From positions 386 through 64,385 of the forward strand of contig CAJWZC010000009.1 in assembly GCA_913049915.1 (NCBI GenBank): 64,000 nucleotides of DNA. The letters are read 5' to 3'. Below, one piece after another: positions 22,277 to 59,273 of the stretch. This DNA is from an uncultured Colwellia sp. GTDB lineage: Bacteria; Pseudomonadota; Gammaproteobacteria; Enterobacterales; Alteromonadaceae. Each line of letters begins with the position of its first letter. The stretch's first letter is position 1. Made by a program: the position numbers and the translations under genes. A model generated the notes under the pieces. The model was not told where the DNA came from. It saw only the letters and a list, made by a program, of their open reading frames with translations, and ran no database searches.

Positions 22277-23152
22277 CTATTTTACTGCCCACACCTTAAA
22301 GTCGTCATAGCTAACTTTATTAACACCTGACATGTTTCTAAGGCCAATGTAGCCACCTTGATGTACCGAACTTTCGTCGATAACATGGTTAACAACTTTA
22401 CCGTTGATTTCAACGGTAATAGCGCCACCGACTTTCAGAATACGAACGTTATAATCGCAGTTGTCACATTTATCCGTATGGCTATCATTGCTTGCTATAA
22501 TTTTAAACTGCGGATTGGTGCGGATGCGATTGGTTTCTCTTTCACGATTTTTAAGTGCTCTCGGCCATGAATTTCTACTCCAATACGAGACAGTGTAACC
22601 CGCAAGACCTCGGTTATACTTTTTGTATACCCCGTCACGAACAGGCAAGCTGATATCGAAAATATCTTGTCCTTCCTTCCCTGTCGTTGCAAAGAAAACT
22701 AAGGTTAAGCCCGCGTCTGAACTGTGATGATTGACGGTAAATTCAAATAGTACATCAGACGGGTAGGATTTTTTATGCCAGACCACCATATGAGATCGTT
22801 CTTTGACTTCTGTTTCAATAGGCTGCCCGCAAGATTTAAAGGGAACCGGAGAAACCCAAAGTTTCCCCTGACAAACTGCCGCACCGCCCCAACCTTCGAC
22901 AATCCACTGTGCCGCGGGGTTGGGTGTTCTAGATCGTTTATCACCCTTAACCATGTTGCTTTCAAAATCGAGAACATCCTTGCCTGAAAAATCATTTTTA
23001 TACAACAGGTTAAGCTTTACTTCATTGATATTTAATGGCGCACCGATTTGCTGTGTTGAGTCAAAAGCGTAAACACTGCTGCTAGCAAGCAACAAAGCGC
23101 TAGCATGCAATACAGAAGATCGGCCAATTGATAAAATTAATTTATTGAGCAT
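22277..23152 (-). CDS. DUF1961/YesU-like secreted jelly-roll protein
   Basis: Signal peptide; WIVEGWG, RSHMVVW, LTLVFFA, YTVSYW, GGYIGLR. Confidence 0.6.
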   Translation of the reverse strand: MLNKLILSIGRSSVLHASALLLASSSVYAFDSTQQIGAPLNINEVKLNLLYKNDFSGKDVLDFESNMVKGDKRSRTPNPAAQWIVEGWGGAAVCQGKLWVSPVPFKSCGQPIETEVKERSHMVVWHKKSYPSDVLFEFTVNHHSSDAGLTLVFFATTGKEGQDIFDISLPVRDGVYKKYNRGLAGYTVSYWSRNSWPRALKNRERETNRIRTNPQFKIIASNDSHTDKCDNCDYNVRILKVGGAITVEINGKVVNHVIDESSVHQGGYIGLRNMSGVNKVSYDDFKVWAVK

Positions 23153-27422: not shown

Positions 27423-27494
27423 TTTGTTTTCCGTCTTTATTTTCTTTTATTAATGGATTCTGGTGGAATTAAGCCGATACAACAAAAAAATACG

Positions 27495-27569
27495 TGGTAT
27501 AGCCACCCTGTCAACCAATCCACGAATTGGTCTGTCCAATACTACTGGCAACATATCATACAAGTCAAG
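27495..27569 (-). promoter_or_regulatory. Promoter/operator module copy B (operator 27525-27540; TTGACT-N18-TAGTAT)
   Basis: AATTGGTCTGTCCAAT 24 nt from GTCAA (27564); secondary TGGTATAGCCA at 27495. Confidence 0.8.
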
Positions 27570-27693
27570 ATAACTTATATTTTAGAGTAGTGATATAGGA
27601 AATAAATAATCTACAAAATAATTTTAAACATTAAGAATCAGATACTTAAACAGGTCATATTGAAGATATAAAGTTTAGTAAAGTTAAATAAGT

Positions 27694-27733
27694 GGGGTCA
27701 GAACAACATTAAAGTTAATTTTGTTCTGATCCC
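27694..27733. repeat. Degenerate inverted doublet of REP-like unit
   Basis: GGGGTCAGAACAACATTAAAGTTAATTTTGTTCTGATCCC. Confidence 0.7.
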
Positions 27734-27766
27734 GGTTAATTTGTGCTGAATTCATCTACTAAGCGT

Positions 27767-29848
27767 TTAAAGTTGCTTGAGTATTAAGTTTTGATAACCA
27801 ATGCGGTAACCAGCGGGAACGTCGGACTCGTACAAACCTATTTTTAGGTAGTAACTAGGGCCAGCGCCATCAATATTACTGCAATCAGTGACCGATAAGC
27901 TATTATCTATATCCAGCACATTTCCATCTATAGTAAGCGATAGCAGTGTTTTTGAATTTTCAATGGTATATTCAATAATATGCCAGCCTTCATTTAAATG
28001 ACCAGGGGTATCTGCAAGGACCTTCTCCCCGCCACTTTGAACACGAACACCTCCTCCAGCTGTTATTTTAATGTTTATCGGTGGCTTTCCTGAGCCACAT
28101 TTTATTTGCGATATAGTCGAATCAAAATCTGAGGGAACTGTTTCGACAAAAAATTTAAATGATACTTTGTAATCACCTACCGGAATGAAAGCGACTTTAG
28201 CTTCTGTTCTGCGGCTATCACCTGGGTCCCTTGTGTCAGTCTGAGTAGCTATAAGGGCCTGGCTATTACCAATATTTCCGATTATAAACCCATCGTTATT
28301 GTCATCATCTTTGGTTCCTCCTGTCCTAAAGGCAATAACCCAAGATTCAAAATCATCTAATTGAATTGCATTAGAGAAATCGATTTGGCAATCTACCCAT
28401 GATCCAAATGCACAACTTTGTGCATCATATCGCCACTGAACGTAGCTATTTATATCTGTACAATTAACATCTCTATTAATCGTGGTATTGGTTAACATGG
28501 TCGCTAGATTATCGATATCAATACAAGCAAGATTAGGGTTATTGGTAAGATACAAGTAATGTAAATCAGTCTTTCCTAATAATACTGAGATATCACTGAT
28601 ACTGTTAGCATTAATAAACAAGTTATTCATAGCGTTCAACGCTGATAGCGCCGAGATATCACTAATCGAGTTATAAGAAAGCGATAGGCCCTTTATGAAC
28701 GTTAATTGAGATAACGCCAAGATATCACTGATATTATTTTCATCAAGATACAAATACATCAACCCTGTTGTGCCTGATAGCGCAGAAATATCACTAATAC
28801 TGTTAGCGGTGAGATATAAATAATTCAGTGCGCTCATCCCTGATAACGCAGAAATGTCACTGATATTGTTATAGCCAAGTTGAAGCACTGATAAAGCCGT
28901 TAAGCTTGATAGTGCCGAGAGTTCACTAATATTATTAGTAGTAAGGTTTAACTCATTTAAAACGGTTAAATTTGATAACGCCGAAATATCACTAATATTA
29001 TTGTTATCTAACCCGAGTGTTTGTAGATTAATAAACACCTCGATACCACTGATACTTGATATAGACGAACTATTGCAATCTAAGCTGTCGACTTCGCTAA
29101 TAAGCTGCCAATTGTTCGTCGATACATGAGAGTCGAAACAAGTTTGGAAATTGCTATCTGCCAAAGTGACATCAGCAATACTGGCAGTAGCTTCCACTAT
29201 AGGTGGCGGTGTTGTATCAGCAACTGCAGTTACTGTAACGGTTCGAGTAACTTCAGTGGCCACATTACCCGATGCATCACTAACATTATAAGTAAGCGTG
29301 TAACTACCAATAGTATCGATATCTACAGACCCAGTTTCTACAATGTTGGCGGTGATAATGCCATCTTTATTATCTTTAGCTTCAGCGCCTTGATCGGTAT
29401 AAGCTTCTCCTTCCTCTAGTTCCACAGTCGCCGGACCGGTAAGCGTCATAACAGGCGCTGTTGTGTCAGCCGCTTTCACTCCCCCTGCAGTTACTGTAAC
29501 GGTTCGAGTAACTTCAGTGGCCGAATTATCCGCAACATCACTGACATTATAGGTAAGCGTGTAACTGCCAGTGGCATCGACATTCACTGCAGATTCATCT
29601 ACTACAATATTGCCGCTGATATCGCCATCTATATTATCGCTAGCTGAAGCACCTTGATCGACATAGGCTTCTCCTTCCTCAAGTTCGACAGTAGCCGGAC
29701 CGGTAAGCGTAATAATAGGCGCTGTTGTGTCAGCCGCTTTCCCACCACTGTCACCACTATCAACGCCGGTACATGCGGCGAGAACAAAAACCAAGCTGAT
29801 AGTTGGCACTAGCCTGATGATAAAGAACTTATCTATAAAAAACATCAT
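27767..29848 (-). CDS. Lipoprotein: 2x DUF5011-type Ig repeats + internalin-like LRRs + C-terminal jelly-roll lyase-like domain
   Basis: Lipobox LAAC; DTTAP.ITLTG...DNIDGD repeats; about 8 L..L.L..N.ISDISAL repeats; C-terminal RRTEAK, ISQIK, YYLKIGLY. Confidence 0.72.
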   Translation of the reverse strand: MMFFIDKFFIIRLVPTISLVFVLAACTGVDSGDSGGKAADTTAPIITLTGPATVELEEGEAYVDQGASASDNIDGDISGNIVVDESAVNVDATGSYTLTYNVSDVADNSATEVTRTVTVTAGGVKAADTTAPVMTLTGPATVELEEGEAYTDQGAEAKDNKDGIITANIVETGSVDIDTIGSYTLTYNVSDASGNVATEVTRTVTVTAVADTTPPPIVEATASIADVTLADSNFQTCFDSHVSTNNWQLISEVDSLDCNSSSISSISGIEVFINLQTLGLDNNNISDISALSNLTVLNELNLTTNNISELSALSSLTALSVLQLGYNNISDISALSGMSALNYLYLTANSISDISALSGTTGLMYLYLDENNISDILALSQLTFIKGLSLSYNSISDISALSALNAMNNLFINANSISDISVLLGKTDLHYLYLTNNPNLACIDIDNLATMLTNTTINRDVNCTDINSYVQWRYDAQSCAFGSWVDCQIDFSNAIQLDDFESWVIAFRTGGTKDDDNNDGFIIGNIGNSQALIATQTDTRDPGDSRRTEAKVAFIPVGDYKVSFKFFVETVPSDFDSTISQIKCGSGKPPINIKITAGGGVRVQSGGEKVLADTPGHLNEGWHIIEYTIENSKTLLSLTIDGNVLDIDNSLSVTDCSNIDGAGPSYYLKIGLYESDVPAGYRIGYQNLILKQL

Positions 29849-29954: not shown

Positions 29955-31310
29955 TTAACTTGGACCATGAAAAGAGGCTCCTTTAACTGGCTCCGACTCC
30001 AATGCAGGGCTACCTTGGCTTACTTGATAGTCGTTATTGGCAGCATCCCGAAAAAGTGGATCTGCGTAGCTAGGGTCATCTCCAGAATTTGATACGATTG
30101 CGTCTCCTTGTAAAAAGAAAAGATTGCCGGCGACAAGATTATTGGGCGCGTGATCCACCAATAGCAGATCGCCAGTCGAGCCAGTAATAATATTGTTCAA
30201 TAGTCGATTACCTTCCGGAGCCACATTTTGTATGCCTTTCTCCTCTTGATCTGCACCGCGGCTATCCCCAACAATAATACCCGTCCGCCCGGCATTGACG
30301 ATAGTATTATTGGCTATCAAACACTGACCGGCTGCCTGATAATGACCGCCCTGTTCCTTGGTCATGCCATAAAACAAACGGATGCCAGTATCCCTACTGT
30401 TGACAATAACATTGTCTTTAACAACGTGACCGGTACCGCAAATACGGATGCCGCCCCTGCTGGAATAAAAACGATTTCCTTCAATTAAACAATTTTGGCC
30501 GCCACGCATGACCAGCTCGCCATCACATTGATTAAATACATTGCGGCGATAAATATTTCCCGCACATTTATTGCTGATAATCTCAGCTTCGCCATCACAG
30601 CGTTCAAATATGTTTTCTTCAACAATAGTACTCACCACTACGTGTCCATAGGTCGGTTGATTGGTGCCAATTTTAATGGTCTCTCTACCATTTACGCCCG
30701 CGTCAGGAATATCTTGGAAGTGGTTGTTGCGAATGACATTGCCAATAGGCACGCCATATTCGTAAATATCTTCATTCATTGTTAGGTTTACACAACGGGC
30801 AGCGATATTGCTAAAATGACAATGAGTGATGAGATTCTTTACAGCGCCAACAGAAATACCTATTGCTGCTTTATCCCCACCACTATTTTCAAACACACAA
30901 TTGGCGATCGAACAATGATCGGAACGATTGAAGTACAAGAGATTTTTGTTAAAATTGCATTGTTCGAATCGAAGACCGTCAACCGTGACATAACGTCCAG
31001 TAATCAAAAAATCGCTAGTTCCGGTAAAGACAACCCCACCAACACTCTGTGGTTGAATCAATATGGGTTGCTGAGATGTTCCCCTACAATCAAGTTCGAC
31101 AGACCAGCCATGGTAGCGGCCATTTTTGATGATAATAGTATCGCCCGGCTTTGCTGCACTAATGGCTGCTTTTAAAGAGTCCTCTGATTCGACAGGCTCT
31201 TGGTCAACCGCAAACACTGCTGCTTCAATCGACAATACGCGATAAGAAACCATGCTACTGGCAAGGCCAGCTGAGGTTAATGCCAAAAACTTACGCCTAT
31301 TAATATTCAC
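29955..31310 (-). CDS. Tat-exported PL6/chondroitinase-B-like lyase (copy 3)
   Basis: NRRKFL; ETIKIGT, EIISNKC...GELVMRGG. Confidence 0.82.
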   Translation of the reverse strand: MNINRRKFLALTSAGLASSMVSYRVLSIEAAVFAVDQEPVESEDSLKAAISAAKPGDTIIIKNGRYHGWSVELDCRGTSQQPILIQPQSVGGVVFTGTSDFLITGRYVTVDGLRFEQCNFNKNLLYFNRSDHCSIANCVFENSGGDKAAIGISVGAVKNLITHCHFSNIAARCVNLTMNEDIYEYGVPIGNVIRNNHFQDIPDAGVNGRETIKIGTNQPTYGHVVVSTIVEENIFERCDGEAEIISNKCAGNIYRRNVFNQCDGELVMRGGQNCLIEGNRFYSSRGGIRICGTGHVVKDNVIVNSRDTGIRLFYGMTKEQGGHYQAAGQCLIANNTIVNAGRTGIIVGDSRGADQEEKGIQNVAPEGNRLLNNIITGSTGDLLLVDHAPNNLVAGNLFFLQGDAIVSNSGDDPSYADPLFRDAANNDYQVSQGSPALESEPVKGASFHGPS

Positions 31311-31836: not shown

Positions 31837-34395
31837 ATGAAAATTTTTAATCCTCTATTTTCTACCATAAAAACAGTGTCCGTTATTGCGCTTGTTACTA
31901 CGCTCAGCGCTTGTGGTGGTAGTGACAGTGACACGACTGATACAACAGCGCCTGATATTGTGCTTAACGGTAGTGGTGCCTCTGTGACCATAACCCAAGG
32001 TGATGCCTATGAAGAGCTAGCAACCGCTAGCGATAATATAGATGGCGATCTCACCGCCAACATTGTAATAGGTGGGGATACTGTGGATGTCGATAGCATT
32101 GGCAGTTACGCTATTACCTATAGAGTCAGTGATGCTGCGAATAATGTCCGTGCAGTTACTCGAATAGTTAATGTTGTTGCAGTGCCTGATATAACAATAC
32201 CTACTATTACGCTTATCGGTTCGGCCACTGTGGAAATAGCGCAAGGAACAATCTATGACGAACAAGGTGCTACCGCTAACGATATTAGGGATGGCGATAT
32301 TAGCGACAATGTTGTCGTAGGTGGGGATGCTGTGGATGCAGATACCATTGGCACTTACAGTGTTACTTATAATGTTAGTGATGAAGCGGATAATGAGGCG
32401 ATAGAAGTTACTCGAACAATAAATGTAATTGCTGATACAACATTGCCTGTTATTACGCTTATCGGTTCGGCCACTGTGAACATAGAAAAAGGAACACCCT
32501 ATGTCGATGAAGGTGCTACCGCTAACGATAATAAAGATGGCGATATCACCGACAATATTTTAGATGATGCGTCTGATGTGGATGTCGATACCGTTGACAC
32601 TTACACTGTTACTTATACTGTCAGTGATGCTGCGGGTAATCCGGCTATTGCTGTTACTCGAACAGTTAATGTTACTGCAGCTGCAGTAATTGAACTGACG
32701 GGTAATTTTTCATACAGTGATGTCGCTGGTATCACTGTCGCTGGTATTAGCTATGCAACAGAGACTCAATCGGGTATAACCGATGCTTCGGGTGCATTTA
32801 GCTATGTAGATGGTGAAACAATAACCTTCTCAATAGGTGACACTGTTATTGGCGATACTGTTGATGCTGAGACTACTATCACCCCACAAGATTTAGCCAC
32901 GGGTGTAGCGTTGTATACAACGACTGCCGAGGTTGGTCATATGTTATCAGGTGATGATCGCAGCCCTGAACGCTTAGCTTTCAATAAATTTCATAACATT
33001 CTTAGCTTTTTGCATACGCTTGATGAAGATGCCGACCCTGATACTAATGGCATAGTTATCGAAGCAGGTATAGCTGCCTTGTTTGTTACCGGTCAAGTTG
33101 ACTTTGAGCAATCATATGTAGATTTTGAAGATAATAGAAAACTAAGATATATCACTCATGCTGCAAAGGTTGCAGGGTTACTGACTACTACTACAGCGGC
33201 TATTAAAAAAACAGGCTTTGCCATAGAGCATTTTTATAGTGCACAAGGCATTACTCATACCCTGGAAGCCAATACCAAAATAATCTTTGACGATGCACTT
33301 GATAACACTCTAGACAATGTTCAAACCTATGGATATGACCCTGTCGGCAATGTTAACAAAGCTATTGAATGGGAGTTATCGGACGATAACCCTGCAGCTG
33401 CCCCTTTAACTGACTCTTTAACTGAGGGTGGTTACGAGAAAAAATACACCTTCATTACCGACGCTAACGGTGTTGCACAAAAGTTTGTAGAAGACCAATT
33501 CGACTGGGCAGGCGTTGAGAGACCATACGAATATAGATATGACACTAACGGCAATCTATTTGAATACGATTGGGCAAAGGATGCAGTAAAGAGCTTTGTC
33601 TATGCCTACGTATTTGATGCTAGCGGTAATAGGACTGCATTTGAAAGAGCTAAGGAGCTAAAAAATGGGGACTTTAAAAAAGATAAAAACGACAAGCAAT
33701 TCACCTATGCTTATGACGCTAGAGGTAACCTGACGCAAAAGGTGGAAGTTGATGAATCTTTCACTGACACTTACACTTATACTTATACTGATAGTAACGA
33801 TGTAACCACTACTGCTGATGATAGTGACGGTGAAATAACACAAATCATCGGGTTTAACGATGAAGATGACCAGACCACCACTGTTATCTATAATACTGAC
33901 GGTCAGCTGATCTCAGAAGCTTTAGTATCAGCTGCAGATGCCACACTAAATGAGACTACTACCTACACCTATGATGCTACAACTGGTTATCTGGAGACCC
34001 TCACGGTTGTAGATGGCGCTGCAGTGACGACTGTTACCACCCACACCTATGATGCTGCAGGTTATAAAGCAACAAGTACTGCTGTAGTTGATGATGGCAT
34101 TACGGCAACCAAGAGCACCACCTTCAATTATAATGGTGACGGCTATCTGGCAACAAGCGACACTGACAAAGATGAAGACGGTACAGCAGACATGATCACC
34201 ACCTTCGTATATACCGGTGACAAACTGATGTCAGAAACAGCTGTAGATAAAAATGATAGTGACAGTGTTATCGAGACCACTACCTATGAATACGTAGCCT
34301 CTACCTGGGTAGCAGTTTTGAAGAAGGTCGTTTTCAATAGCAGCGCTCGACCACAAGCTGAGCCAGTTAGTTACAACGCTCCTCCAATTAAATAA
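31837..34395 (+). CDS. Acidic surface lipoprotein: 3x DUF5011-type Ig repeats, adhesin-like middle domain, YD-like repeats
   Basis: Lipobox LSAC; three P.ITL.G...D..DGD...Y.VSD repeats; GISY.T...G.T...G.FSY..GETITFSIG; many Y.YD..GN/G. repeats. Confidence 0.7.
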   Translation: MKIFNPLFSTIKTVSVIALVTTLSACGGSDSDTTDTTAPDIVLNGSGASVTITQGDAYEELATASDNIDGDLTANIVIGGDTVDVDSIGSYAITYRVSDAANNVRAVTRIVNVVAVPDITIPTITLIGSATVEIAQGTIYDEQGATANDIRDGDISDNVVVGGDAVDADTIGTYSVTYNVSDEADNEAIEVTRTINVIADTTLPVITLIGSATVNIEKGTPYVDEGATANDNKDGDITDNILDDASDVDVDTVDTYTVTYTVSDAAGNPAIAVTRTVNVTAAAVIELTGNFSYSDVAGITVAGISYATETQSGITDASGAFSYVDGETITFSIGDTVIGDTVDAETTITPQDLATGVALYTTTAEVGHMLSGDDRSPERLAFNKFHNILSFLHTLDEDADPDTNGIVIEAGIAALFVTGQVDFEQSYVDFEDNRKLRYITHAAKVAGLLTTTTAAIKKTGFAIEHFYSAQGITHTLEANTKIIFDDALDNTLDNVQTYGYDPVGNVNKAIEWELSDDNPAAAPLTDSLTEGGYEKKYTFITDANGVAQKFVEDQFDWAGVERPYEYRYDTNGNLFEYDWAKDAVKSFVYAYVFDASGNRTAFERAKELKNGDFKKDKNDKQFTYAYDARGNLTQKVEVDESFTDTYTYTYTDSNDVTTTADDSDGEITQIIGFNDEDDQTTTVIYNTDGQLISEALVSAADATLNETTTYTYDATTGYLETLTVVDGAAVTTVTTHTYDAAGYKATSTAVVDDGITATKSTTFNYNGDGYLATSDTDKDEDGTADMITTFVYTGDKLMSETAVDKNDSDSVIETTTYEYVASTWVAVLKKVVFNSSARPQAEPVSYNAPPIK

Positions 34396-43879: not shown

Positions 43880-46045
43880 TTAGGGTGTAAATTTCTTAAC
43901 AGTAGCGCCAGGGTTAACGGGTTCTTTCAGCCATGTTGGTTGAGTGAAAGCGCCATTGCGGGCGATGTCCCAAACTTCCAGACGTACCCAAGTCGCACGA
44001 CTCAAGTCGATGGGGAAATTCATATTTTCCCGACCAAATTCCCGGCTCTGTGACATATTAATGGTATGAGTTTTTATCTGATCACCTTCGCCCCAAATAA
44101 TTTCAGCAAAACCTAGCGGAAAGGTCCATTCAACGTCGACTGTAACTTGAGATTTAGTGATTTTATGATCATGCAGCAGCACCTCACCGGTACTAACAAA
44201 GAAGTCACCGCGTCTGAGTACGTCCGATACCGCTGACCAATCTCCGCTATCCATATCCGGAAGTTTAGGCAACTTCAGGTAGTTAATATTCATTTGACTG
44301 TAGAGTTCAGATTCAAAATCAACATAGAAGATATCTCCTGCGCCAACTAATTTCTTTTTGTAACCCCACTGAGACATGTCATCAAGGAGTTTCAAGGCAC
44401 GGCGACCCAAGCGAGGCTCGGAAAGATCAGAAGGTATTGCCTTCCACTCCGCCCCTAAAAAGACCTCATCATCTTTGAAGAAATCTTCTGTTGCATAGTC
44501 ATCGGGGAATAGTTGTGAGCCCTTCACCCGTGGATGAGCAGTGAAAGCCAAACCGCCTTCACGTTTTAACATTTCATAAACTTCAGCAGAGTTACCAAGC
44601 CGGTAAACCGTGCCATAGGGTTCTAACTGTTCGACAAAGGGTTCATTTTCTTCTCGGCTTTTGACGAAATAAACCGGCTTGGGAAACAAGTAATTCCAAT
44701 GACCACCAAAGTGAGCATTGGCTTCTTCTCCGGGTAACATCACGAACTCATCATCAGAATACTTCTTAGCAAGGTCGAACATGGCTTTAAGTTGTTTAAA
44801 TCGTTTTTCCCCGATGTCTCTGCCATTATAATCACCACAACAATGGAACTCGGCCAGGTGCAAAATTTGCACATTTAGACTTTTCATTACCTCTTTAAAT
44901 TCAAGTGCGGTAGTGAAAGGGGATATTTTGCCTTTCTTTTTGCCTTTTTTGTACACTTTCATCTTACCCATCTCTTTACGCGTCATTGCCGGATGGTAGT
45001 GCTCGGTGTAGGTTTTATAGCCTTCAATGATTTTGAATTGATCGCCATGGGTATAGCGCTTGACACGTTCGAGTGTATCTTCTGCCTTAGTGGGACTGAG
45101 CAAGAGAAATGCGCCCATACGCTGCACTGTGCCCACTTTCGCATCCACCCAAGGAGCATGGGTATGATCACCTTCTTTTTCCTGACGAATACCAATAATT
45201 CCGGCGCCTGCTTTCACATAACCTCTATTGTGGGCATATTTATTAACTGGCCAAGAGGATGCATGAGGTGGCGGGAAAAAGGCAATGGTGCCGTTATCAT
45301 ACTCAGCCATGACTGTTCTGTGTACGACCTTGAGCGGAATGGCTTTTTTAGACGGAACCTGACGCACGATTTGTTTAGTTTTATTATCCTTATATACGAT
45401 CATCGGCACTTGGGTTTGAAAAAGCCCTTCGTAAATATAAGCGACCGAAGATTGTTCGGTGCTCATCAAAGCTTCCCAATAAAGCAAGGGACTGCCAGCA
45501 TAGATATTAAGCACCAAATCACCCGAGAAAGAGCCACTACTGAACGTTGAAAAAACCAGTTTTACCCGGCCCCCCTCTGAACTGACTTTGACAGACTTTA
45601 AGTCGAGGCGCGAAGTAAAGGTTTTTGATGGTCGCTCATTTGGCGTATCAAAAAAGATATACGGCCATTCTTTCTTACTGAGAGAGTTGCCGCGCGACTT
45701 GCCACGAGAACCAATGGTGACAGGAAAGTCAGGTTGAATATTTTGCGCCAAAATCGTAAATGAAGATGCCCCATTCTCAGCATAAGGATGGGCATATGAG
45801 ATGGATTTCATTAGCGGATTTTTACCAGAAATATCCAATACCAGCTGATAGGTAATTTTGTCTGCTGCCTGCCAATCTAGCGTTAAAGCATCTCCAGCAT
45901 GTGTAATTTTTACTGGACTTAAAGGGTTATATTGGCTCAAGTCGACCTGTTGAGCAACTACCTGCTGGTTAGCTATCTGTTTGGCACACAAAGGAAGACT
46001 ACAGCAAACAAGGAAAATCACTGCAAGAAAGTTATTTTGAGTCAT
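43880..46045 (-). CDS. Secreted hypothetical protein with C-terminal PHP/amidohydrolase-like metal-binding motifs
   Basis: Signal peptide; EHYH, AEFH, PGEEANAHFGGHW, AHPR, GAGD. Confidence 0.5.
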   Translation of the reverse strand: MTQNNFLAVIFLVCCSLPLCAKQIANQQVVAQQVDLSQYNPLSPVKITHAGDALTLDWQAADKITYQLVLDISGKNPLMKSISYAHPYAENGASSFTILAQNIQPDFPVTIGSRGKSRGNSLSKKEWPYIFFDTPNERPSKTFTSRLDLKSVKVSSEGGRVKLVFSTFSSGSFSGDLVLNIYAGSPLLYWEALMSTEQSSVAYIYEGLFQTQVPMIVYKDNKTKQIVRQVPSKKAIPLKVVHRTVMAEYDNGTIAFFPPPHASSWPVNKYAHNRGYVKAGAGIIGIRQEKEGDHTHAPWVDAKVGTVQRMGAFLLLSPTKAEDTLERVKRYTHGDQFKIIEGYKTYTEHYHPAMTRKEMGKMKVYKKGKKKGKISPFTTALEFKEVMKSLNVQILHLAEFHCCGDYNGRDIGEKRFKQLKAMFDLAKKYSDDEFVMLPGEEANAHFGGHWNYLFPKPVYFVKSREENEPFVEQLEPYGTVYRLGNSAEVYEMLKREGGLAFTAHPRVKGSQLFPDDYATEDFFKDDEVFLGAEWKAIPSDLSEPRLGRRALKLLDDMSQWGYKKKLVGAGDIFYVDFESELYSQMNINYLKLPKLPDMDSGDWSAVSDVLRRGDFFVSTGEVLLHDHKITKSQVTVDVEWTFPLGFAEIIWGEGDQIKTHTINMSQSREFGRENMNFPIDLSRATWVRLEVWDIARNGAFTQPTWLKEPVNPGATVKKFTP

Positions 46046-46342: not shown

Positions 46343-47755
46343 TTATTTCAATACGCCCGACAGATCGGCAACAAAAACGCGCCTTGTTCCGTCAACCACA
46401 CCGTTGATGGCGACACGAGTATAGTTACTGCGATCCCATGCAGGATGCAGATCCACTCGCATTGCTTTAGCCTTGTTGAAGTCTGCATCAAAAAACGTGG
46501 TTACCGCATCCATGCGTACCAGGGTTTGTCTTTGGTGGTTTTCGAGATCAACAAAATGCAAAGGTACGGTGCCATCACCGAATGCATCGGCTTCACGTGG
46601 ATAAACATCGCTGATCATATATCGACCATCAGGATGAATTGCTGGGTGACCATGGTTGGCGGGGACTGTGGTGAATGTTCTCAAATCTTTACCATCGTAT
46701 CGTGCCTGCACATACTTCCAGTTTTCTTCATCTGAATCAAGGTCCACTTTATCGATATCAAGGTTCATCATCACATGCTCACCATCAGGGTGCCAGTTAG
46801 GGTGGTTACCTCCTTTGTCAGCCCACTCAGATGCATCAATGGCAACATGAATATCCTCACCTGTGCGAGTCATGGTGATCAACATCGGCTTGCGTTGTTT
46901 TTCGTTGTAGGGCATGTAACGTAGTACCAGCATGATACGATCGGATTTAGCATTAAATTTAGTATGGAAGCCATAGAAATCACCAGCGCCATAGCGACTT
47001 ACGTCGATTTTAGGCAATGCTTGCTCAACAATGGTTTTATATGAAACCACCATTTTACTTTCACCCGTTGTGGTATTAACAACATAAACACCGTCATCAT
47101 CTACGAATCCCTTGTTGACAGGAACATATTCCTTAGGAACAATCACGCCATAACCTGCTTGGGTTGCGCCGATACGTCGTAAACTGGTACGAACCCCCCA
47201 TTTACCATCGGGTGATATATCGTAAATGGCGCCATCAAGTTTTTGTTTTTCACCAGATAAGTGATTCATTTTTACGGCAAATGGCATCCAAGTCTCTGGA
47301 TTAACGTCATTAAAATATAACTCTTGATCTGTGCTGCCCCACTGCACCTGGGCGCCAAGTTGGGTATCCCAGCCAATGGTTTGTGCAACGATTTTCTGCT
47401 CACCCGTTTCAAGGTCAACAACAACTACCCGTGCAACATCGCCGGGTTGTGGCTCTTTATCTTCACGTTGTAAACAAGTTAACCCCAAATAGCGGCCAGA
47501 AGGGCTAAAGGGTGAGGAAAGGTGAAAGCGATGAATACATCGGTTGATGTCTGGTGTCACATTCCAGATAGGAACACTGGGATTATACTCGGTGTAGCGT
47601 GTAAACACTTTGTCGAGAGGATGGGTCAATTCGACTGTTGCTGTGCTAGTCTCGACCGAAGCACTATCTGTATCGGTATTTGTATCTGAACAGGCACCTA
47701 ACGTCAGGGTTAAAAACACCGCTGACATTGCCTTAACTAAATTACGTTTTTGCAT
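46343..47755 (-). CDS. Lipoprotein beta-propeller, TolB/oligogalacturonate-lyase (PL22)-like
   Basis: Lipobox LGAC; HRFHLSSPFSPSGRYL, QLGAQVQW, HPNWHPDG, HPAIHPDG, RVDLHPAW. Confidence 0.55.
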   Translation of the reverse strand: MQKRNLVKAMSAVFLTLTLGACSDTNTDTDSASVETSTATVELTHPLDKVFTRYTEYNPSVPIWNVTPDINRCIHRFHLSSPFSPSGRYLGLTCLQREDKEPQPGDVARVVVVDLETGEQKIVAQTIGWDTQLGAQVQWGSTDQELYFNDVNPETWMPFAVKMNHLSGEKQKLDGAIYDISPDGKWGVRTSLRRIGATQAGYGVIVPKEYVPVNKGFVDDDGVYVVNTTTGESKMVVSYKTIVEQALPKIDVSRYGAGDFYGFHTKFNAKSDRIMLVLRYMPYNEKQRKPMLITMTRTGEDIHVAIDASEWADKGGNHPNWHPDGEHVMMNLDIDKVDLDSDEENWKYVQARYDGKDLRTFTTVPANHGHPAIHPDGRYMISDVYPREADAFGDGTVPLHFVDLENHQRQTLVRMDAVTTFFDADFNKAKAMRVDLHPAWDRSNYTRVAINGVVDGTRRVFVADLSGVLK

Positions 47756-47812
47756 ATTATCCTTCCACTTTCATTTATTAATTTTTTATTTAGCTGCTAT
47801 TTTTTTTCACTT

Positions 47813-49339
47813 TTACTTCATCCAATTGGGGCCAACATTAGCCGCTACCAGAGGTCGATGTATTTGTGCCTTATCAGCGAATTCAATAGCGCCGACATCA
47901 CGTTTCTCGCCGCGATGTTTGCCGTGCAGATCTATCGCTAGATATGACGACGTCGCCGCATCGATGGCTGGGCTGTTGTTACTTAGCATCAATAAACCGC
48001 TGTTCGATGCCTTAAGCTTGGGATCGACAAATGTCACTTCCACGGACTGAAATGAGGGGTTTTTCCCTGCAAAAGCGATATTTCCGACAAAGGTATTCTC
48101 GTCGAAATTAAATAGTTCTAAAGGCGCGGCTTTATCTTGAATTGCCATTTCAATCGCCTCATTACCAAATTGATAAATAAGATTATTGGCTATGACGTTT
48201 TTCTCAGGCAACAGTACCTGTTGAAGACCTGGCCAACCAGCTTTATAGCCATGCGCAAGATTAATCGCGCTCTCTCCGACGTCAATAAGAGTATTGTGAG
48301 CGATGTAGCTATGGGTAACCTGTAAATATTTCGCCAATACTTTTTTCTTAGGCGTCCACTTATCAGTCAAGGGCGCTGCAAAATATTCGCCCGAAATCAA
48401 ACGTATGCCATCTTGTTCAACATGGCTGATGTAATTATTGATCACCCGATGATGAGAACCCGCAAGACGTATACCTGTTGTACCATTTAGCCCCTCTCCT
48501 AGGATGAAATTTCCTTCGAAGGTATTGAATTTACCTCTTCTTCCAACTAGTCCGCCTCGGGTGCCACGCACGGTATTGAAACGTACAATATTATAATTAG
48601 ACTTCAATGAAACGATTTCAGCACCTTCACCATGAGCCCTTTCAAACAAGTTGTATTCGATGGTGAAATACGCGCCATCATCACCGGTTTCATCGGCATG
48701 ACCATAACCCCAGATCCTGAATATTTCCCTACCGTTGCCATTGGGCTCTTCAGGCACATAAGGCATGTCCTTAAAATGACTGCGACTAACGATATTGTAG
48801 CGAGCGTTCAAATCTGCATTACCTATTAATGGTCCCTTATTAGTTTTCCCTTCGAAATAACTATTAAGCACTTTATTCGCATTGCCGTTAAACATGACCC
48901 AATAGTATTGGGTTTCAAACTTTTCAGGGTTGTAATTGATGATAGCCGTTTGATTCAAAGTGCAGTGATCCGAATTGAAGGTGATCACCGACCCCTCTTC
49001 AATGGCACCCCCTTCAAATAATAAACCCTCGACGTTCAAATAAGGTTTCGAAAAAATCAAGCTAGAGCTTCCGGTAAGCTTCACTTTTCCAGACGTCTCG
49101 GCGCGTAAGGTAATAGGTGCCAAGGCAGTGGCAGCAGCATTGAAATCGATTACCGCATCTCGCCAAACGCCATCTTTCATCACAATCGTATCGCCCGGCT
49201 CAGCCGAAGCAAACGATGCAGTTAACTGCGACAGATTCGAGACCTTTAATTCCTCCGCGCTAAGGGTCGCGGTCAAGGCTAGTCCTACACATAGAAGCAA
49301 ACCTACTCGACCAAAGTTACCAAGTTTAATTGCCTTCAT
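47813..49339 (-). CDS. Single-domain PL6/chondroitinase-B-like lyase
   Basis: Signal peptide; GDTIVMKDG, EIFRIWG, EIVSLKSN...GGLVGRRG, TGIRL. Confidence 0.82.
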   Translation of the reverse strand: MKAIKLGNFGRVGLLLCVGLALTATLSAEELKVSNLSQLTASFASAEPGDTIVMKDGVWRDAVIDFNAAATALAPITLRAETSGKVKLTGSSSLIFSKPYLNVEGLLFEGGAIEEGSVITFNSDHCTLNQTAIINYNPEKFETQYYWVMFNGNANKVLNSYFEGKTNKGPLIGNADLNARYNIVSRSHFKDMPYVPEEPNGNGREIFRIWGYGHADETGDDGAYFTIEYNLFERAHGEGAEIVSLKSNYNIVRFNTVRGTRGGLVGRRGKFNTFEGNFILGEGLNGTTGIRLAGSHHRVINNYISHVEQDGIRLISGEYFAAPLTDKWTPKKKVLAKYLQVTHSYIAHNTLIDVGESAINLAHGYKAGWPGLQQVLLPEKNVIANNLIYQFGNEAIEMAIQDKAAPLELFNFDENTFVGNIAFAGKNPSFQSVEVTFVDPKLKASNSGLLMLSNNSPAIDAATSSYLAIDLHGKHRGEKRDVGAIEFADKAQIHRPLVAANVGPNWMK

Positions 49340-51020: not shown

Positions 51021-54000
51021 TTATTGAGCTGCCAAATAACCAAGCGAGACTAAAAATTCATCCATTGCTGCTACGGTCTTTTGATAATGCTCTGGATGGG
51101 AGTAATTAAAGAAGCCATGCTTTTGCCCTTCATAGATATGCAAGTCACTACGCACACCTTTTGCTTCCATCAACGTTTTATATTTTTCAGCGGTTGCAAC
51201 AGGAATAAGCCTATCGTTGCTGCCCAACATAACGAGGGTCGGTGGTGTCTGTTCACTTAAGTTATGCATCGGTGAAATTTCTTGCCAATACGCTTTTACT
51301 TTCTTATAACCATAGCCCTTTTCACTATTATCATAAACAGGATTAAACAGCACCAGTGCTTCGGGACGTGCTGATATTGACAGGTTATCACTGGATTCAT
51401 TAAACCCTTGCAGTGTGCCAGTAGCGGCTGCCAAATGACCGCCAGCAGAGCCGCCGCCAGCAAGTATTTTCTCAGGGTCTATACCAAATTCACTCGCGTG
51501 TTCCCGAACCCAGCGCATAGCCGACTTTGCGTCCATCACACTTTCACGGGGTGTAGAGTTATTACGTTTGTTCACTCGGTACTCTGCTGATATTCCTACA
51601 ATGCCGCGACTAGCAAGATATTGTGCCTGAGAAAAGAGTTTACTGGCTTCACCGCCACTCCAACCGCCGCCATGAAAAAAGACCATGGCGGGTCGTTTAT
51701 CTGAAACCTTCAAGCCCTTTGGATTATATATATGGAGCTTTAGGCTGACATCGCCAATGGTTTTATAAACTACCGCAGCATCTGGCACCTTATCTAACTT
51801 AAATTGAGTCCCTTTGTTCGTTTGAGAACGGATCTCAATTATTGCGCCTTCAACATCATCATTCGGTTTAAACAAAATCTTGGCGACACCGTTAGCCAAA
51901 GTTAAAATGGCACTTTTGTTGGGCGTACCATAGGCGGTAAGAAGTTCACCACCGACGCCTTCATTGGTGTGGCTGAAATAAACCCGATCTTTGGCTTGAA
52001 GAACTCTAACGCCTTCAGCATCCACTGCTATTGCTGAAATCTCAATCAAGCCGTCAACACGTTTTTTTGCAGTCAGATCAAATTCATATAATTTGCCCGA
52101 TTTTTTGTTGGTAAAATTAAGGTTCAATGCGTCCTGTGTAGTGATTTTATCGGCTGAAAAACCGGTCACAGCAAGACTGTTATGGCCTTCTTTAAAATCA
52201 ACATCCCAATACAGACCTGACGCAGGAAAATTTTCAATATTACGTTGTTTGCGACCGAGCGATTTACCATTAAGACTAAGCTCTGCACTATCAACGTTAC
52301 AATAAACTCGGATACGACTTTGTGTCCCTTCCGGTGTATATCGCTCTGTCCAGTCATGACCATAGATGCGACAGAAAGGCTCCGTAGTCCAGTAGCTTTT
52401 AAATACCCAATAGGCTTCTTTAGGCTTTCCGTCTCGAGTCACTAATCCTTTTTGATTAATATAAGGCAGGTGATTTTCCGGACGTATTGGTGTGGCAAAA
52501 TCTTTGAACGCCCATTGCGCGTTACCGACAAAATCTGGCTGCGTTTCCGATACTTTTAAATGCCAATCAAACAAATCAACGATATAACTTTCGTCCCAGT
52601 CGCTGCCTTTAGCCACTGACTTTACGCCAGATTGATTGACCATTTCTTCAACACTAAGCTGACCACCTTCTAAACCATTGGGACCAAATGGCGTTGCAGT
52701 GTGTCTACCGACATGGCTCGAACCACCATATTCTGCATGTAAAAAACGAGGGTACTTCTTTTGAGCTCGGTCAAGGGCCGCACCGTATTGACCAAAACCG
52801 CCACCATACCAACCCGCCCAAATAGAGGGTGAGTAAACGTCAACTAGGTCTGGGCCCACTTCAAACTTGCGTGTCGCAGTGGCACGTGATGGATCTAGTA
52901 GGTGCGATAAATCGTTCATTTCACCCATAAAATCACGCAGTACATCCGGCTCACCACCGCCTTCAATATCAGGCATCCAGTAAACTTCATTACCAAGCGA
53001 CCAAATGATAACACTGGGATGATTGCGGTTTTGCGCAATCATTTCTCTCAGATGATTTTTGGTATTTTCACGCCATACTGTGCCACCTACGCCACCTCGA
53101 TTCCATGGCACCTCGTCCCACAGTAGGATGCCTAATTCGTTGGCAGCATCATAAACAGACGGGTCATGCGAATAGTGACCAAGGCGAAGGAAGTTTGCGC
53201 CAACATCTTTTATCTGGCGCATATCTACCCAATGTTGTTCATTGGTCAAGGCGCTGCCAACCCCTGCTTCACCTTCATGTAAGTGGGTACCGCGAAGTAA
53301 TAAGCGCTCACCGTTTAAATAAAATGCACCATGTGCTTTAAATTCAAACCAACGGTAACCAAATCGTTCACTGTGTGAGGCGATATCGAGGCCGGTGGCA
53401 TCGGTCAATGTAGCTTCGGCTGTATATAAATTGGGGCTATCAACATGCCATAAACTTGGATTTTTCAAAACAGGCAGATCAAAGTTCAAGCTATTTGAGC
53501 CCGGCGCTACTTCAATATTTTTATTCGAGGTAAGCACCACGTTATCGGCATTATCACGTATGGTAACACTGAGGTTCATAGTCTGGGCTCCTTGGTGATT
53601 AACCAGTAACACAGAGGCTTTTGTTTCGGCATTTTCTGCACTGACAACAGGTGTTTCGATAAATATTCGCTCAACATGGACAGCTTCACGTACTTTTAAA
53701 GAAACGTCTCGCGTTAAACCACCATAAATAACAAAGTCTGCTTTTTGTGATGGTATTAAGTCGAGATCAACTGTGTTATCAACGCGAACAAAAACGGTAT
53801 TTTTCGCACCTTTGTTAAGATAATCAGTGATGTCTACATCGAAGCCTAAATAGCCGCCGATATGACCACCTGCCCGTTGATCATTGACATATACATCGGC
53901 TACAAGTTGTGCAGCTTCAAATGAAAGAATATAACGCAGACCTTTATCGTCAGTTGCAATATCAAATGATTTTTGATACCAACTTGCTGCCCGTCTATAA

Positions 54001-54296
54001 CCGGGTTTCGAATCGGTAGGATCAAAAGCATTCCAAGTATGTGGTAGATCAATCGATTGCCATTCGCTCTTACTCTGAGCGAGTTTAATATCTTTGCTGC
54101 TGTACTCAAGGTATTCCCAGTCCGCAGAAATGAGCAAGTTTTGGACATCAGGTTTAACGCTCAAAGCTCGAGTCGTTTCAGGGTTTACCGAAGCCGTTTG
54201 TTCAAAACAGCCAACGAGCAGAAACGCCGTAGATAACGCCGCAACTAACCCCATAATATTTCGGGTCAAGGGATTGAAAATCGATCTTATTGACAT
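51021..54296 (-). CDS. Lipoprotein GH2 glycosidase fused to C-terminal alpha/beta-hydrolase esterase
   Basis: Lipobox LVGC; GH2 HIGGY, RLGHY, WSLGNE (acid/base), AEYG (nucleophile); C-terminal FHGGGW, GGSAGGHLA, GSND, KHGFFN. Confidence 0.85.
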   Translation of the reverse strand: MSIRSIFNPLTRNIMGLVAALSTAFLLVGCFEQTASVNPETTRALSVKPDVQNLLISADWEYLEYSSKDIKLAQSKSEWQSIDLPHTWNAFDPTDSKPGYRRAASWYQKSFDIATDDKGLRYILSFEAAQLVADVYVNDQRAGGHIGGYLGFDVDITDYLNKGAKNTVFVRVDNTVDLDLIPSQKADFVIYGGLTRDVSLKVREAVHVERIFIETPVVSAENAETKASVLLVNHQGAQTMNLSVTIRDNADNVVLTSNKNIEVAPGSNSLNFDLPVLKNPSLWHVDSPNLYTAEATLTDATGLDIASHSERFGYRWFEFKAHGAFYLNGERLLLRGTHLHEGEAGVGSALTNEQHWVDMRQIKDVGANFLRLGHYSHDPSVYDAANELGILLWDEVPWNRGGVGGTVWRENTKNHLREMIAQNRNHPSVIIWSLGNEVYWMPDIEGGGEPDVLRDFMGEMNDLSHLLDPSRATATRKFEVGPDLVDVYSPSIWAGWYGGGFGQYGAALDRAQKKYPRFLHAEYGGSSHVGRHTATPFGPNGLEGGQLSVEEMVNQSGVKSVAKGSDWDESYIVDLFDWHLKVSETQPDFVGNAQWAFKDFATPIRPENHLPYINQKGLVTRDGKPKEAYWVFKSYWTTEPFCRIYGHDWTERYTPEGTQSRIRVYCNVDSAELSLNGKSLGRKQRNIENFPASGLYWDVDFKEGHNSLAVTGFSADKITTQDALNLNFTNKKSGKLYEFDLTAKKRVDGLIEISAIAVDAEGVRVLQAKDRVYFSHTNEGVGGELLTAYGTPNKSAILTLANGVAKILFKPNDDVEGAIIEIRSQTNKGTQFKLDKVPDAAVVYKTIGDVSLKLHIYNPKGLKVSDKRPAMVFFHGGGWSGGEASKLFSQAQYLASRGIVGISAEYRVNKRNNSTPRESVMDAKSAMRWVREHASEFGIDPEKILAGGGSAGGHLAAATGTLQGFNESSDNLSISARPEALVLFNPVYDNSEKGYGYKKVKAYWQEISPMHNLSEQTPPTLVMLGSNDRLIPVATAEKYKTLMEAKGVRSDLHIYEGQKHGFFNYSHPEHYQKTVAAMDEFLVSLGYLAAQ

Positions 54297-56564: not shown

Positions 56565-59273
56565 TTAGAACTCAATATCAATATAAGCTTTATGGCTGCC
56601 ACCATTATACTCCTTGGTAAGCATATAGAAGAAAATGCCTGTTTCATCGGCCTCCATAATCGCTAAGCTGAGGGTACCATCACCATCGACTTCACCTTGA
56701 ACCAAAGCGGTTATATCAAGGGTTCGCCAGCCATAATCGGCGTCAGCCACAGTAAATGAGCCTGCTGAACTAGCCAAATCTGGCAGTTCATCCCAAGTAA
56801 GTCCGTTTTCTGTCCAGTTATCGTGGTCAATCGGCTTTATTTTCTGTTTAACACTATCACCATTTTTGGTATAGCCATAGACGTTAAGGGTCGCTGAGGT
56901 AATGGTTGCACTATTGGCCGCACTGACATCAAACTTCATGACAATAATTCTATCGGAGTCTGCATCGCCGCTGCCCTCTTTACTTTTGATGGTATCATCT
57001 GTGCCATAATCGGTAGTGGCAGAGCCTTCACCTCTTTGAACATAAGTGTCAGCAGTTACATTTGCAGTGTAACTTGGTACCTCACTTGAACTTGCATAGC
57101 ACAGTGCATCCCAGCCATAAAAGTAACCCGCCGCAAAACAGGCACTTTCATCACCATGATAATCACTTTCATTATCATCAACTGGGGCTGCTAGTATTAT
57201 TTCAAGGTAAGGGTTTTCGTCGCTAAAGTCGGACGTTTTTATCTGTTGGGCTACATCTAGACCATTAGTTTGGCTGAACGCTAGACTTAAGATGCCGTCG
57301 CCGTCGATTTGGGTTTGCACATAAGCGGTAATATCTACTGTCTGCTTTTGATAATCATCGCTGTTATTGGTGGTCATTGAGCCGATACTATCACCAATTT
57401 CGAGATTATCATTCCAGTTTACTTCATGCTGATCCCAGCCATCAGCGCTTACTGCACCGATATCGGTTGTGATAGTGGTGTTGTTACTGTTTTTGGTGAA
57501 TACATGGAGAATAGCGCTGCTAATGTTGGCATCAATGGCGCTAACATCAAACCTCATATAACCAACCTTGTCCTTAGTACTACTATTTTTAACCTTTATC
57601 TTAGTAACTGATCCGAAATATTTATCCGGCTTACCGCTGTCAACATAGGTTTCGGCTACTGGAAACCTGATAATAGGTAGCGTAGGTTTAGGGAGTAAAT
57701 CAGTGGGGCCAACGTCCGCTACCGTTAACGGCTTATTAATACTAGCGGTTGTCGTGTACTCAGCAGCACCCACATCATGAATTGAATCGCGTGATAAACC
57801 ATGTATGTCAATATTGGCTAAGCTGTAGTTAGTGTTAACCGCATTAACTACGGCACTAGAAACAGTAGGGACAAACACACCATCAACATCAGCGGATAAA
57901 CCTGGATTAATTTCATCGATTTGTGCAGCAGTAATGGTTCTACCGAGTACGGCTAATTCATTGCTTATGGAAGTGGAAGAACCATAAGCAATATTACCAA
58001 TAAAAGTAATGCTAGGCTCAATATCCAAGTACTTTGGGTCATCATCAAACAATGCAGTGCTGCCGGCATAATAAATAGCGTTGTTAGCGATAATTGAATT
58101 TATAGGCGCATTAATATGTTGAAACGGGTCACTACCTACCTGCCCAATAACCAGCGAAGGTTTTGAGTTAACAATAGTATTGTTGTAAATTTCTAAATCT
58201 TCGGCACTTCTATATTCGCTGCCATTGCCGCCAGTGCCAGCATATATAGTAATACCCGCTTTTTTAGTGTTTTTAATGTGATTGTTATAAACTTTATGTC
58301 CATTACCAATAATACGAATACCGCCAGTGCCATTAATGCCACCACCATCAATAAAATTACCATAGACTTGGTTATCATCACCATTACGTAAGGTAATAGA
58401 ACCTTGATTATCAAGGAATGTATTGTACCTAAAGATGTTGCTGTCAGATTTACTAGAAATAATCTCAGCTTCTCCGTCTATTTTATAAAATAGATTGTAT
58501 TCCGCAATGGTATTGGAATCAGTTCCTGCCTCGGCACCACTGCCTATCTTAAGGCCTTCTTGTCCGTTTGCACGATCTGGGTAATTGACAGAAATACGCG
58601 TATCGAAGTAATTATGATGAAAATGATGATTATCCTCAAAATTAGGGTAGTTAGCATCAGTCGAGTCGCGACGATTAACTATCACCATAACGCCACTCAT
58701 CTGCATATTGGTAAAATGATTATGGTCTATTTCATTATGAGAGCCACGCACATTAACCCAGTGGTACCTAACCTCTGAATCTTGGCTGTTGAAACCATCA
58801 ATAGTGGTATTTGTTAAGCGACTGTGATTCGCAAAAGTGCTGGTATCTGTAGAGTCATCATAAAAACGAATGATCCCGCGACCATCAGCTCTTTCACCAT
58901 TTTGAAAATGCAAACCATCGACGATTAAATAATCACCCGCAATTTTTAAGCCTGAATTTCCTTCCAGAGAAACACCACCTTTGCTTTGGGCTTGCAACAG
59001 TATCGGCGAACTTGCCGTGCCATCGACATTAAACAATATTTCTAAGTTAGTATAGGTACCATCTTTAATGACGACGGTATCTCCTGGGACAGATGCTGCA
59101 ATCGCATCTTCAATTTCTGTTGGTGACCCTGCGGTTCTGACCGTAGCAAAAACACTTCCTGCCAGGCTGATGCTTAATAGTACCACCACTGTTTTACATA
59201 AACGGCTTCTCAAACGCATTGTTAAATCAACCAAAGTTAACTTCTTTATATTTTGTAATAACTTTAAATGCAT
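56565..59273 (-). CDS. Secreted PL6 lyase with two C-terminal CBM96/DNRLRE-like modules
   Basis: EGLKIGSG, EIISSKS...GSITLRNG; two A(E/D)TYV...(Y/V)M(R/K)FDVS...SA.L.V modules. Confidence 0.78.
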   Translation of the reverse strand: MHLKLLQNIKKLTLVDLTMRLRSRLCKTVVVLLSISLAGSVFATVRTAGSPTEIEDAIAASVPGDTVVIKDGTYTNLEILFNVDGTASSPILLQAQSKGGVSLEGNSGLKIAGDYLIVDGLHFQNGERADGRGIIRFYDDSTDTSTFANHSRLTNTTIDGFNSQDSEVRYHWVNVRGSHNEIDHNHFTNMQMSGVMVIVNRRDSTDANYPNFEDNHHFHHNYFDTRISVNYPDRANGQEGLKIGSGAEAGTDSNTIAEYNLFYKIDGEAEIISSKSDSNIFRYNTFLDNQGSITLRNGDDNQVYGNFIDGGGINGTGGIRIIGNGHKVYNNHIKNTKKAGITIYAGTGGNGSEYRSAEDLEIYNNTIVNSKPSLVIGQVGSDPFQHINAPINSIIANNAIYYAGSTALFDDDPKYLDIEPSITFIGNIAYGSSTSISNELAVLGRTITAAQIDEINPGLSADVDGVFVPTVSSAVVNAVNTNYSLANIDIHGLSRDSIHDVGAAEYTTTASINKPLTVADVGPTDLLPKPTLPIIRFPVAETYVDSGKPDKYFGSVTKIKVKNSSTKDKVGYMRFDVSAIDANISSAILHVFTKNSNNTTITTDIGAVSADGWDQHEVNWNDNLEIGDSIGSMTTNNSDDYQKQTVDITAYVQTQIDGDGILSLAFSQTNGLDVAQQIKTSDFSDENPYLEIILAAPVDDNESDYHGDESACFAAGYFYGWDALCYASSSEVPSYTANVTADTYVQRGEGSATTDYGTDDTIKSKEGSGDADSDRIIVMKFDVSAANSATITSATLNVYGYTKNGDSVKQKIKPIDHDNWTENGLTWDELPDLASSAGSFTVADADYGWRTLDITALVQGEVDGDGTLSLAIMEADETGIFFYMLTKEYNGGSHKAYIDIEF

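Follow-up and report, generated by a model that had tools for sequence, protein, structure and literature searches.

The best-described relatives of the protein domain treated here are polysaccharide lyases (PLs) with a β-jelly-roll fold. Those of family PL7, represented in our comparison by Sphingomonas A1-II' (2cws/2z42), Pseudomonas PA1167 (1vav), Paradendryphiella PsAlg7A/C and the Trichoderma parareesei glucuronan lyase (7nde), are single-domain jelly rolls of about 230 residues with three motifs, R-[ST]-E-[LV]-R, Q-[IV]-H and Y-F-K-A-G-x-Y, the last of which contains the catalytic Tyr. Family PL36 has a jelly-roll fold as well, and Pfam family PF14099 ('Polysacc_lyase') is taken here to comprise enzymes of the heparin lyase I (PL13) and glucuronan lyase (PL20) type. 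We analyzed a stretch of 64,000 nucleotides (nt) from an uncultured Colwellia sp. (GenBank assembly GCA_913049915.1, contig CAJWZC010000009.1, positions 386 to 64,385; referred to as the window), and in it a minus-strand open reading frame (ORF), 27767..29848, whose product of 693 residues according to the window's ORF list and translation is a lipoprotein with immunoglobulin (Ig)-like domains, leucine-rich repeats (LRRs) and a C-terminal domain that we call the head. On the evidence of profile comparisons and a structural model, the head is probably a highly divergent member of the PL7/PL13/PL20-type superfamily that founds an undescribed polysaccharide-lyase family. For the protein as a whole we favor, with moderate confidence, an exported, lipid-anchored, divergent uronate lyase of that family, in which the Ig/LRR stalk would be a lineage-specific accessory.

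In single-sequence searches, the head had no match in Pfam, NCBIfam or the PDB sequences; a PDB search with the head family profile gave nothing relevant (a single chance match, E 0.31), and the whole lipoprotein retrieved only LRR proteins from the PDB. Across 10 family members, PF08787 (PL7) and PF14099 were the only recurring Pfam families, with weak matches of PF08787 in seven members (best E 2.9e-4, all below threshold) and of PF14099 in three (best E 7.6e-4; P0002 with 16.3 and P0003 with 17.8 bits vs a threshold of 29.9). For profile-profile alignment with hhalign, the 10-sequence head profile was compared with 50 PL7 sequences, assembled from a PL7 encoded in a same-class genome, homologues of it from the databases and two sequences from the PDB, and with 15 PF14099 sequences drawn from genomes of the same class. 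The probability was 91-92.5% over about 131-133 columns for PL7 and 91.3% for PF14099; in controls against PL7, the reversed profile gave 2% and six block-shuffled profiles 3.2% or less.

Both alignments contain all three motif correspondences, with the catalytic Tyr and His columns fixed from the PDB mutant sequences Y284F and H191N of A1-II', and thereby place RRTEAK, ISQIK and YYLKIGLY on the same lyase triad that the original prediction had seen echoed in them with substitutions. In the counterpart of R-[ST]-E-[LV]-R, the Arg, Thr and Glu are retained and an invariant Lys takes the place of the final Arg; the counterpart of Q-[IV]-H is Q-[IVM]-K in all ten members, with the active-site His absent; and the Y-F-K-A-G-x-Y motif is present column for column, including the catalytic Tyr, with K, G and Y invariant. 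In the full-length-domain alignment A3 (n=10, members 39-75% identical to one another), the invariant positions are R81, R82, T83, E84 and K86, then Q116, K118 and C119, and finally K204, G206, L207, Y208 and E209. The head thus shares with PL7 the single-domain jelly roll of similar size, the order and similar spacing of the motifs, and an origin among proteins that are often exported and encoded in uronate clusters. It differs in its Q-I-K and R-T-E-A-K, in four Cys conserved throughout the head family, in the N-terminal approximately 80 residues, which align poorly, and in belonging to a tiny and separate family. In the comparison with PF14099, the motifs R-x-E, Q-x-H and Y-[LF]-K-[LI]-G-[IV]-Y find their counterparts in the head, and YLKIGLY is nearer to the third of them than to the PL7 version, whereas all matches of the head family stay below the gathering score and Lys stands in place of His. 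By the thresholds of the hidden Markov models (HMMs), the head lies outside both PL7 and PF14099, and it is without the canonical His, yet it is like them in every alignable feature.

The AlphaFold2 model of the head, computed from a 14-row alignment, is all-β, with a mean predicted local distance difference test score (pLDDT) of 85, a predicted template-modeling (TM) score of 0.84, and pLDDT values of 87-98 for the motif-bearing strands. When searched against the PDB with Foldseek, its top matches were the PL7 lyases 5zqi, 8r43, 7nde, 2z42 and 1vav (E about 1e-7, probability 1.00, TM 0.5-0.57) at a sequence identity of 14-18%, and the best named matches in the viral fold database BFVD were alginate lyases. 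PL36 was not among the top 50 Foldseek matches in the PDB. The β-rich C-terminal domain of about 230 residues and the jelly roll of the original prediction, for which a different fold would have been the contrary outcome, were thus both recovered.

The exchange of His for Lys does not exclude catalysis. In PL7, neutron, X-ray and quantum mechanics/molecular mechanics (QM/MM) work assigns the roles of base and acid to Tyr, the pKa of which is lowered by a conserved Arg, while the His only hydrogen-bonds the substrate (PMC11920209); the same paper cites PL7 glucuronan lyases as having a Tyr/Tyr mechanism and, by the title of its reference 20, PL36 Aly36B as using Lys for both base and acid in catalysis. 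At the Q-I-H site, 7nde, a glucuronan lyase of PL7, has Q-V-F. Aly36B, from Chitinophaga pinensis and likened here by description only, is a precedent for an active-site Lys in a polysaccharide lyase. By analogy with PL7, R547 and Q581 would neutralize and position the C6 carboxylate of the uronic acid at subsite +1, and Y673, its pKa lowered by neighboring basic residues, would take H5 and protonate the leaving O4 in a β-elimination, with K583, in place of the PL7 His, helping to position the substrate or serving as an auxiliary base. As substrate we expect the sulfated polysaccharide of uronic acids at which the surrounding cluster is directed, on which the lyase would act together with PL6 enzymes, and the two Ig domains and eight LRRs may serve as a lineage-specific stalk, spacer, docking or targeting insert. 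Catalysis, the substrate and the outer-membrane or surface location of the lipoprotein, which the original prediction had pictured as display on a 'fishing rod', are in this scheme what we infer.

The head family is very rare. Exhaustive scanning of 1.84 billion cluster representatives with HMMER gave 14 head matches in all, two relatives came from a word-indexed search of 5.8 billion proteins and a few more from a profile search, and a pattern scan of 185,579 species genomes identified one representative genome with a head, a Colwellia metagenome-assembled genome (MAG). No head was found in the 48 congeneric or 32 same-order genomes searched. Its own genome, 99.97% complete, has one copy of it, and no canonical PL7 (PF08787) or PF14099 protein was found there. 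Most members consist of the head alone on a lipid anchor (bare lipoprotein heads in P0005 and P0016-P0019), and nearly all have a lipobox or signal peptide, with an [LIV]-x-[AS]-C lipobox equivalent to that of the window protein in eight homologues (P0004, P0005, P0008, P0016-P0020). The remaining architectures are one Ig domain and head (P0004, 75% identical), PKD and head (P0008 and the Colwellia MAG), an approximately 140-residue unannotated domain and head (P0002, and P0003 from Corallincola luteus), and head with a long C-terminal region (P0009). Carbohydrate-binding modules (CBMs) accompany catalytic modules, and in P0006 the head is joined to a CBM96 (E 5.8e-20), a module described as binding alginate in lyases (PMC9971899). 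No other protein in the databases searched joins LRRs to the head, in keeping with an architecture that the original prediction did not recognize.

The approximately 140-residue partner domain (YIDENYTFTDV...YVLYDK...PxWL) lies at about residues 45-195 of P0002, at about residues 50-205 of P0003 and in the C-terminal part of P0009, and has no Pfam match. Its AlphaFold2 model from two sequences reached a pLDDT of 49.8, too low for a fold search; the domain may be a CBM.

Gene order places the head in a uronate-polysaccharide cluster in a second lineage. On metagenome contig L035, the order is GH2(DUF4982) - PL6 - a 79%-identical orthologue of the window gene at 46343-47755 - Ig + head - PL6 (GH, glycoside hydrolase), and on contig L032 the same Ig + head gene is followed by a PL6; given these two orders, the head belongs to the same type of cluster there. 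The L035 gene has a homologous signal peptide and a head that is 75% identical and starts at the same INSY residues, without a second Ig domain and without any LRR. Because this orthologue has one Ig, no LRR and the same head start, the 340-residue Ig + LRR block is, by sequence comparison, a lineage-specific indel with which the head can dispense. The PKD + head gene of the Colwellia MAG follows a GH28 gene with a twin-arginine translocation (Tat) signal, among TonB-dependent receptors. Elsewhere, the contexts are weak or uninformative, with a GH26 two genes away, an H-type-lectin protein or housekeeping genes.

The copy of the Colwellia MAG (Colwellia sp. DT_21, JABSOZ010000019.1), with a head 82% identical, has a nonsense codon at the Glu of RRTEAK (L008:4948-4950), made by a single-base change of GAA to TAA. 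P0008, an ENA record, stops at this very site and differs from it in a single N-terminal residue, and the PKD + head copy is likely an inherited pseudogene.

Several of these results speak against a lyase. On the head of the window protein, PF08787 scores 11.9-12 bits (E 0.19-0.2), below its gathering threshold of 29.7, and PF14099 does not match at all; the canonical His and the last Arg of R-x-E-L-R are both changed to Lys; three of seven contexts (L001, L004, L036) are without neighbors encoding carbohydrate-active enzymes (CAZymes); and the nonsense codon at the motif Glu implies that the gene is dispensable in that Colwellia. In Foldseek, ConA-like lectin domains (neurotoxin binding, trans-sialidase lectin) score barely below PL7, so that the fold alone does not separate enzyme from lectin, and a lyase-derived protein that binds anionic glycans would be expected to have conserved basic and aromatic residues as well.

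The strongest alternative, though an unlikely one, is a non-catalytic surface glycan binder, a lyase-derived jelly roll holding anionic polysaccharide near the cell for the Tat-exported PL6, in the manner of a Bacteroidota surface glycan-binding protein (SGBP) or a large type-B CBM. The near-equal scores of the many lectin domains with a ConA-like fold, the replaced His, the position of the lipoprotein below the threshold of every lyase HMM, a long Ig + LRR stalk suited to distant capture, and the possible redundancy of one more lyase in a cluster with at least nine recognizable ones are all in its favor. However, the whole PL7 constellation of R, E, Q and K-x-G-x-Y with the catalytic Tyr is invariant where loss would be expected after inactivation, heads that sit alone on a lipid anchor predominate among the members, a CBM96 of its own would be odd for P0006 if the head were a mere CBM, and none of the 10 members has a head that matches a CBM or lectin family of Pfam, even with E values as high as 10 admitted.

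A different use of the stalk is conceivable in that the LRRs might be functional and internalin-like, binding a protein of an alga, animal or particle, with the head as an auxiliary lectin; we regard such an adhesin as very unlikely. The LRR region matches Pfam LRR_4 (E 3e-20, 72 bits vs 27) and LRR_8 (E 3.4e-12), and among PDB sequences it is closest to Rab-family LRR proteins (E about 1e-50 to 1e-51), with internalin A at E 1.5e-49 and internalin B at about 1e-27. The Listeria internalins InlA and InlB likewise combine capped 22-residue LRRs with Ig-like domains, which are typical of bacterial adhesins, and 11 of 54 congeners have giant LRR surface proteins. In contrast to the internalins, the lipoprotein has a Gram-negative lipobox rather than LPXTG or GW, and the order Ig-Ig-LRR-head rather than LRR followed by Ig; the NCBIfam class 1 internalin models NF033189 and NF033188 stay far below cut-off (104 bits vs 1600 and 90 bits vs 1050) and cover the LRR part only. 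Moreover, the gene lies inside a catabolic cluster, probably co-transcribed with a PL6 gene, and the orthologue that keeps signal peptide, one Ig domain, head and PL6 context has no LRRs, which marks the head as the conserved unit.

The least probable alternative, and in our view hardly to be expected, is another enzyme on the same scaffold, either hydrolytic or similar to a uronate C5-epimerase, with Tyr/Lys taking H5 without elimination or acting on a non-uronate substrate: the invariant His-to-Lys change could signal chemistry different from PL7 and several members lie outside uronate loci, but we know of no jelly-roll epimerase, the lipoprotein sequence shows no E-x-D-x-x-E motif of the GH16 type, all recurrent weak family matches are lyases, and Lys and Tyr/Tyr variants already exist among true jelly-roll lyases.

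Within the lyase reading, a more specific version is put forward tentatively and at somewhat less than an even chance. In this version, the head would be a new family, sister to PL7 and PF14099, with an invariant Tyr/Lys pair, cutting a sulfated-uronan linkage that is closed to PL6 and PF05426 enzymes, and mounted on recently inserted LRRs that dock to a protein partner, be it an outer-membrane transporter or a protein on a host or particle surface. If this is true, it would be the first LRR-targeted polysaccharide lyase; a literature search gave no precedent for an LRR-bearing one. An LRR-bearing CAZyme is known in EndoS, whose LRR domain (PF23952) matches weakly (E 4.8e-5, below the gathering score of 27.9). 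As a functional analogy from general knowledge, Klebsiella PulA and the surface endo-enzymes and SGBPs of Bacteroidota polysaccharide utilization loci are likewise lipid-anchored enzymes or binders with Ig-like spacers in a polysaccharide cluster, although, unlike in those loci, no SusC/SusD pair lies beside the lipoprotein gene. Should the head be active, it would add to CAZy a new lyase family in which the PL7-type active site occurs with a natural exchange of His for Lys, bear on the debate over the base residue in jelly-roll lyases (Tyr alone, Tyr/His, Tyr/Tyr, Lys), and possibly offer a new specificity for sulfated marine uronans. The two orthologues, one with the Ig + LRR insert and one lacking it, form a natural experiment on the value of stalk and LRRs for a cell-bound glycanase. 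As the head family is very rare, its importance would be mechanistic and biotechnological, not global.

The features of the gene and its surroundings are given in Table 1. In the signal peptide, the n-region is basic, the core is hydrophobic and the lipobox reads L-A-A-C (...SLVFVLAAC, residues 18-26), which was judged by eye against the pattern [LVI]-[ASTVI]-[GAS]-C. Over both Ig copies, PF16403 scores 131.7 bits (E 9.7e-39, gathering threshold 27), and the copies are identical in about 60 of 81 residues (approximately 74%) by pairwise alignment. The Ig and LRR domain matches lie far outside chance expectation. The LRR module exists as a single copy in its own genome. The lipid anchor, the two Ig repeats and the about eight LRRs of 22 residues in the original prediction all hold; the minus strand of the gene is a detail absent from it and the sole correction to what it had observed. 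The lipoprotein occurs with identical sequence (P0001) on nine metagenome contigs, where the PL6 and the sulfatase are again its neighbors. The GC content of the gene is 40.3% vs 41.4% for the window, and there is thus no compositional anomaly pointing to horizontal transfer.

Table 1. Features of the lipoprotein gene and its flanks (window coordinates; residue numbers refer to the 693-residue product).
Feature	Coordinates	Strand	Basis and details
Tat-signal PL6 lyase, upstream gene	29955..31310	-	Chondroitinas_B E 2e-48; twin-arginine NRRKFLALT
Signal peptide with lipobox, residues 1-26 MMFFIDKFFIIRLVPTISLVFVLAAC	29771..29848	-	Translation; Cys26 predicted lipidated residue, +2 Thr
Ig-like domain 1, Bact_surface_Ig-like, residues 38-125	29474..29737	-	PF16403
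Ig-like domain 2, residues 126-208	29225..29473	-	PF16403, best stretch residues 134-206
Linker and LRR N-cap, residues 209-261, with Cys237 and Cys258	29066..29224	-	Internalin B N-cap region aligns from residue 212
Eight 22-residue LRRs, residues 262-437	28538..29065	-	Consensus xISDISALSxLxxLxxLxLxxN, perfect register
LRR C-cap and linker, residues 438-465, with Cys442 and Cys463	28454..28537	-	Translation
Head, β-jelly-roll domain of 228 residues, residues 466-693	27770..28453	-	AlphaFold2, Foldseek, hhalign; remote PL7/PF14099-like putative lyase module
Motif 1, RRTEAK, residues 546-551	28196..28213	-	R547-T-E549-A-K551 aligns with R-[ST]-E-L-R of PL7
Motif 2, SQIK, residues 580-583 (ISQIK from 579)	28100..28111	-	Q581 on Q and K583 on H of PL7 Q-I-H; conserved Cys584 next
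Motif 3, YYLKIGLY, residues 666-673	27830..27853	-	Y667-L-K669-I-G671-L-Y673 on Y-F-K-A-G-N-Y; Y673 on catalytic Tyr (Y284 of A1-II')
Hairpin 34-73 nt past the lipoprotein stop codon, candidate transcription terminator	27694..27733	-	RNA fold

The lipoprotein gene sits between the Tat-PL6 gene, which the original prediction had correctly placed just upstream, and a sulfatase gene. The PL6 gene is separated from it by 106 nt without a terminator-like site on the minus strand, and the hairpin past the stop codon is strong (-20.5 kcal/mol, z -4.3, none of 200 shuffles as good); for these two reasons, PL6 and lipoprotein likely form one two-gene transcript. The hairpin was missed by a consensus terminator scan because its loop is long and its U-tract weak. 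The gap to the downstream sulfatase (27423-27766, 344 nt) contains two sigma-70-like minus-strand sites, at 27568-27539 and 27514-27487, and the sulfatase probably has its own promoter.

The window as a whole is one large uronate-polysaccharide cluster with seven Chondroitinas_B/PL6 genes, two PF05426 lyases, two GH88, about eight sulfatases, a GH2-esterase fusion, DUF1961 and BNR_4 proteins, a GntR regulator, KduI and KduD; a literature search gave no precedent for a Colwellia PL6/GH88/sulfatase locus. The DUF1961 protein (22277-23152) was tried as a relative of the head and rejected (hhalign 1.3%). In the fusion protein (51021-54296, minus strand, 1091 residues), a GH2 with N, TIM and DUF4982 domains is followed by a C-terminal BD-FAE/alpha-beta-hydrolase esterase, which suggests that the substrate is also esterified. 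The PL6 at 56565-59273 (minus strand) has two CBM96 modules (E 1.4e-53), the module family also fused to the head in P0006. A divergent gene (31837-34395, plus strand) encodes 852 residues with three Bact_surface_Ig-like copies (E 6.6e-45) and about 550 residues without a Pfam match.

Two further proteins in the lyase operon, a 470-residue lipoprotein (46343-47755, minus strand) and a protein of 721 residues (43880-46045, minus strand), have no significant Pfam match. The former is 79% conserved in the cluster of another organism and is thus a candidate uncharacterized CAZyme; in the comparison of L035:919-7020 with window positions 46343-49339, its orthologue is a lipoprotein of 468 residues, and the head gene lies at a different place in the orthologous cluster.

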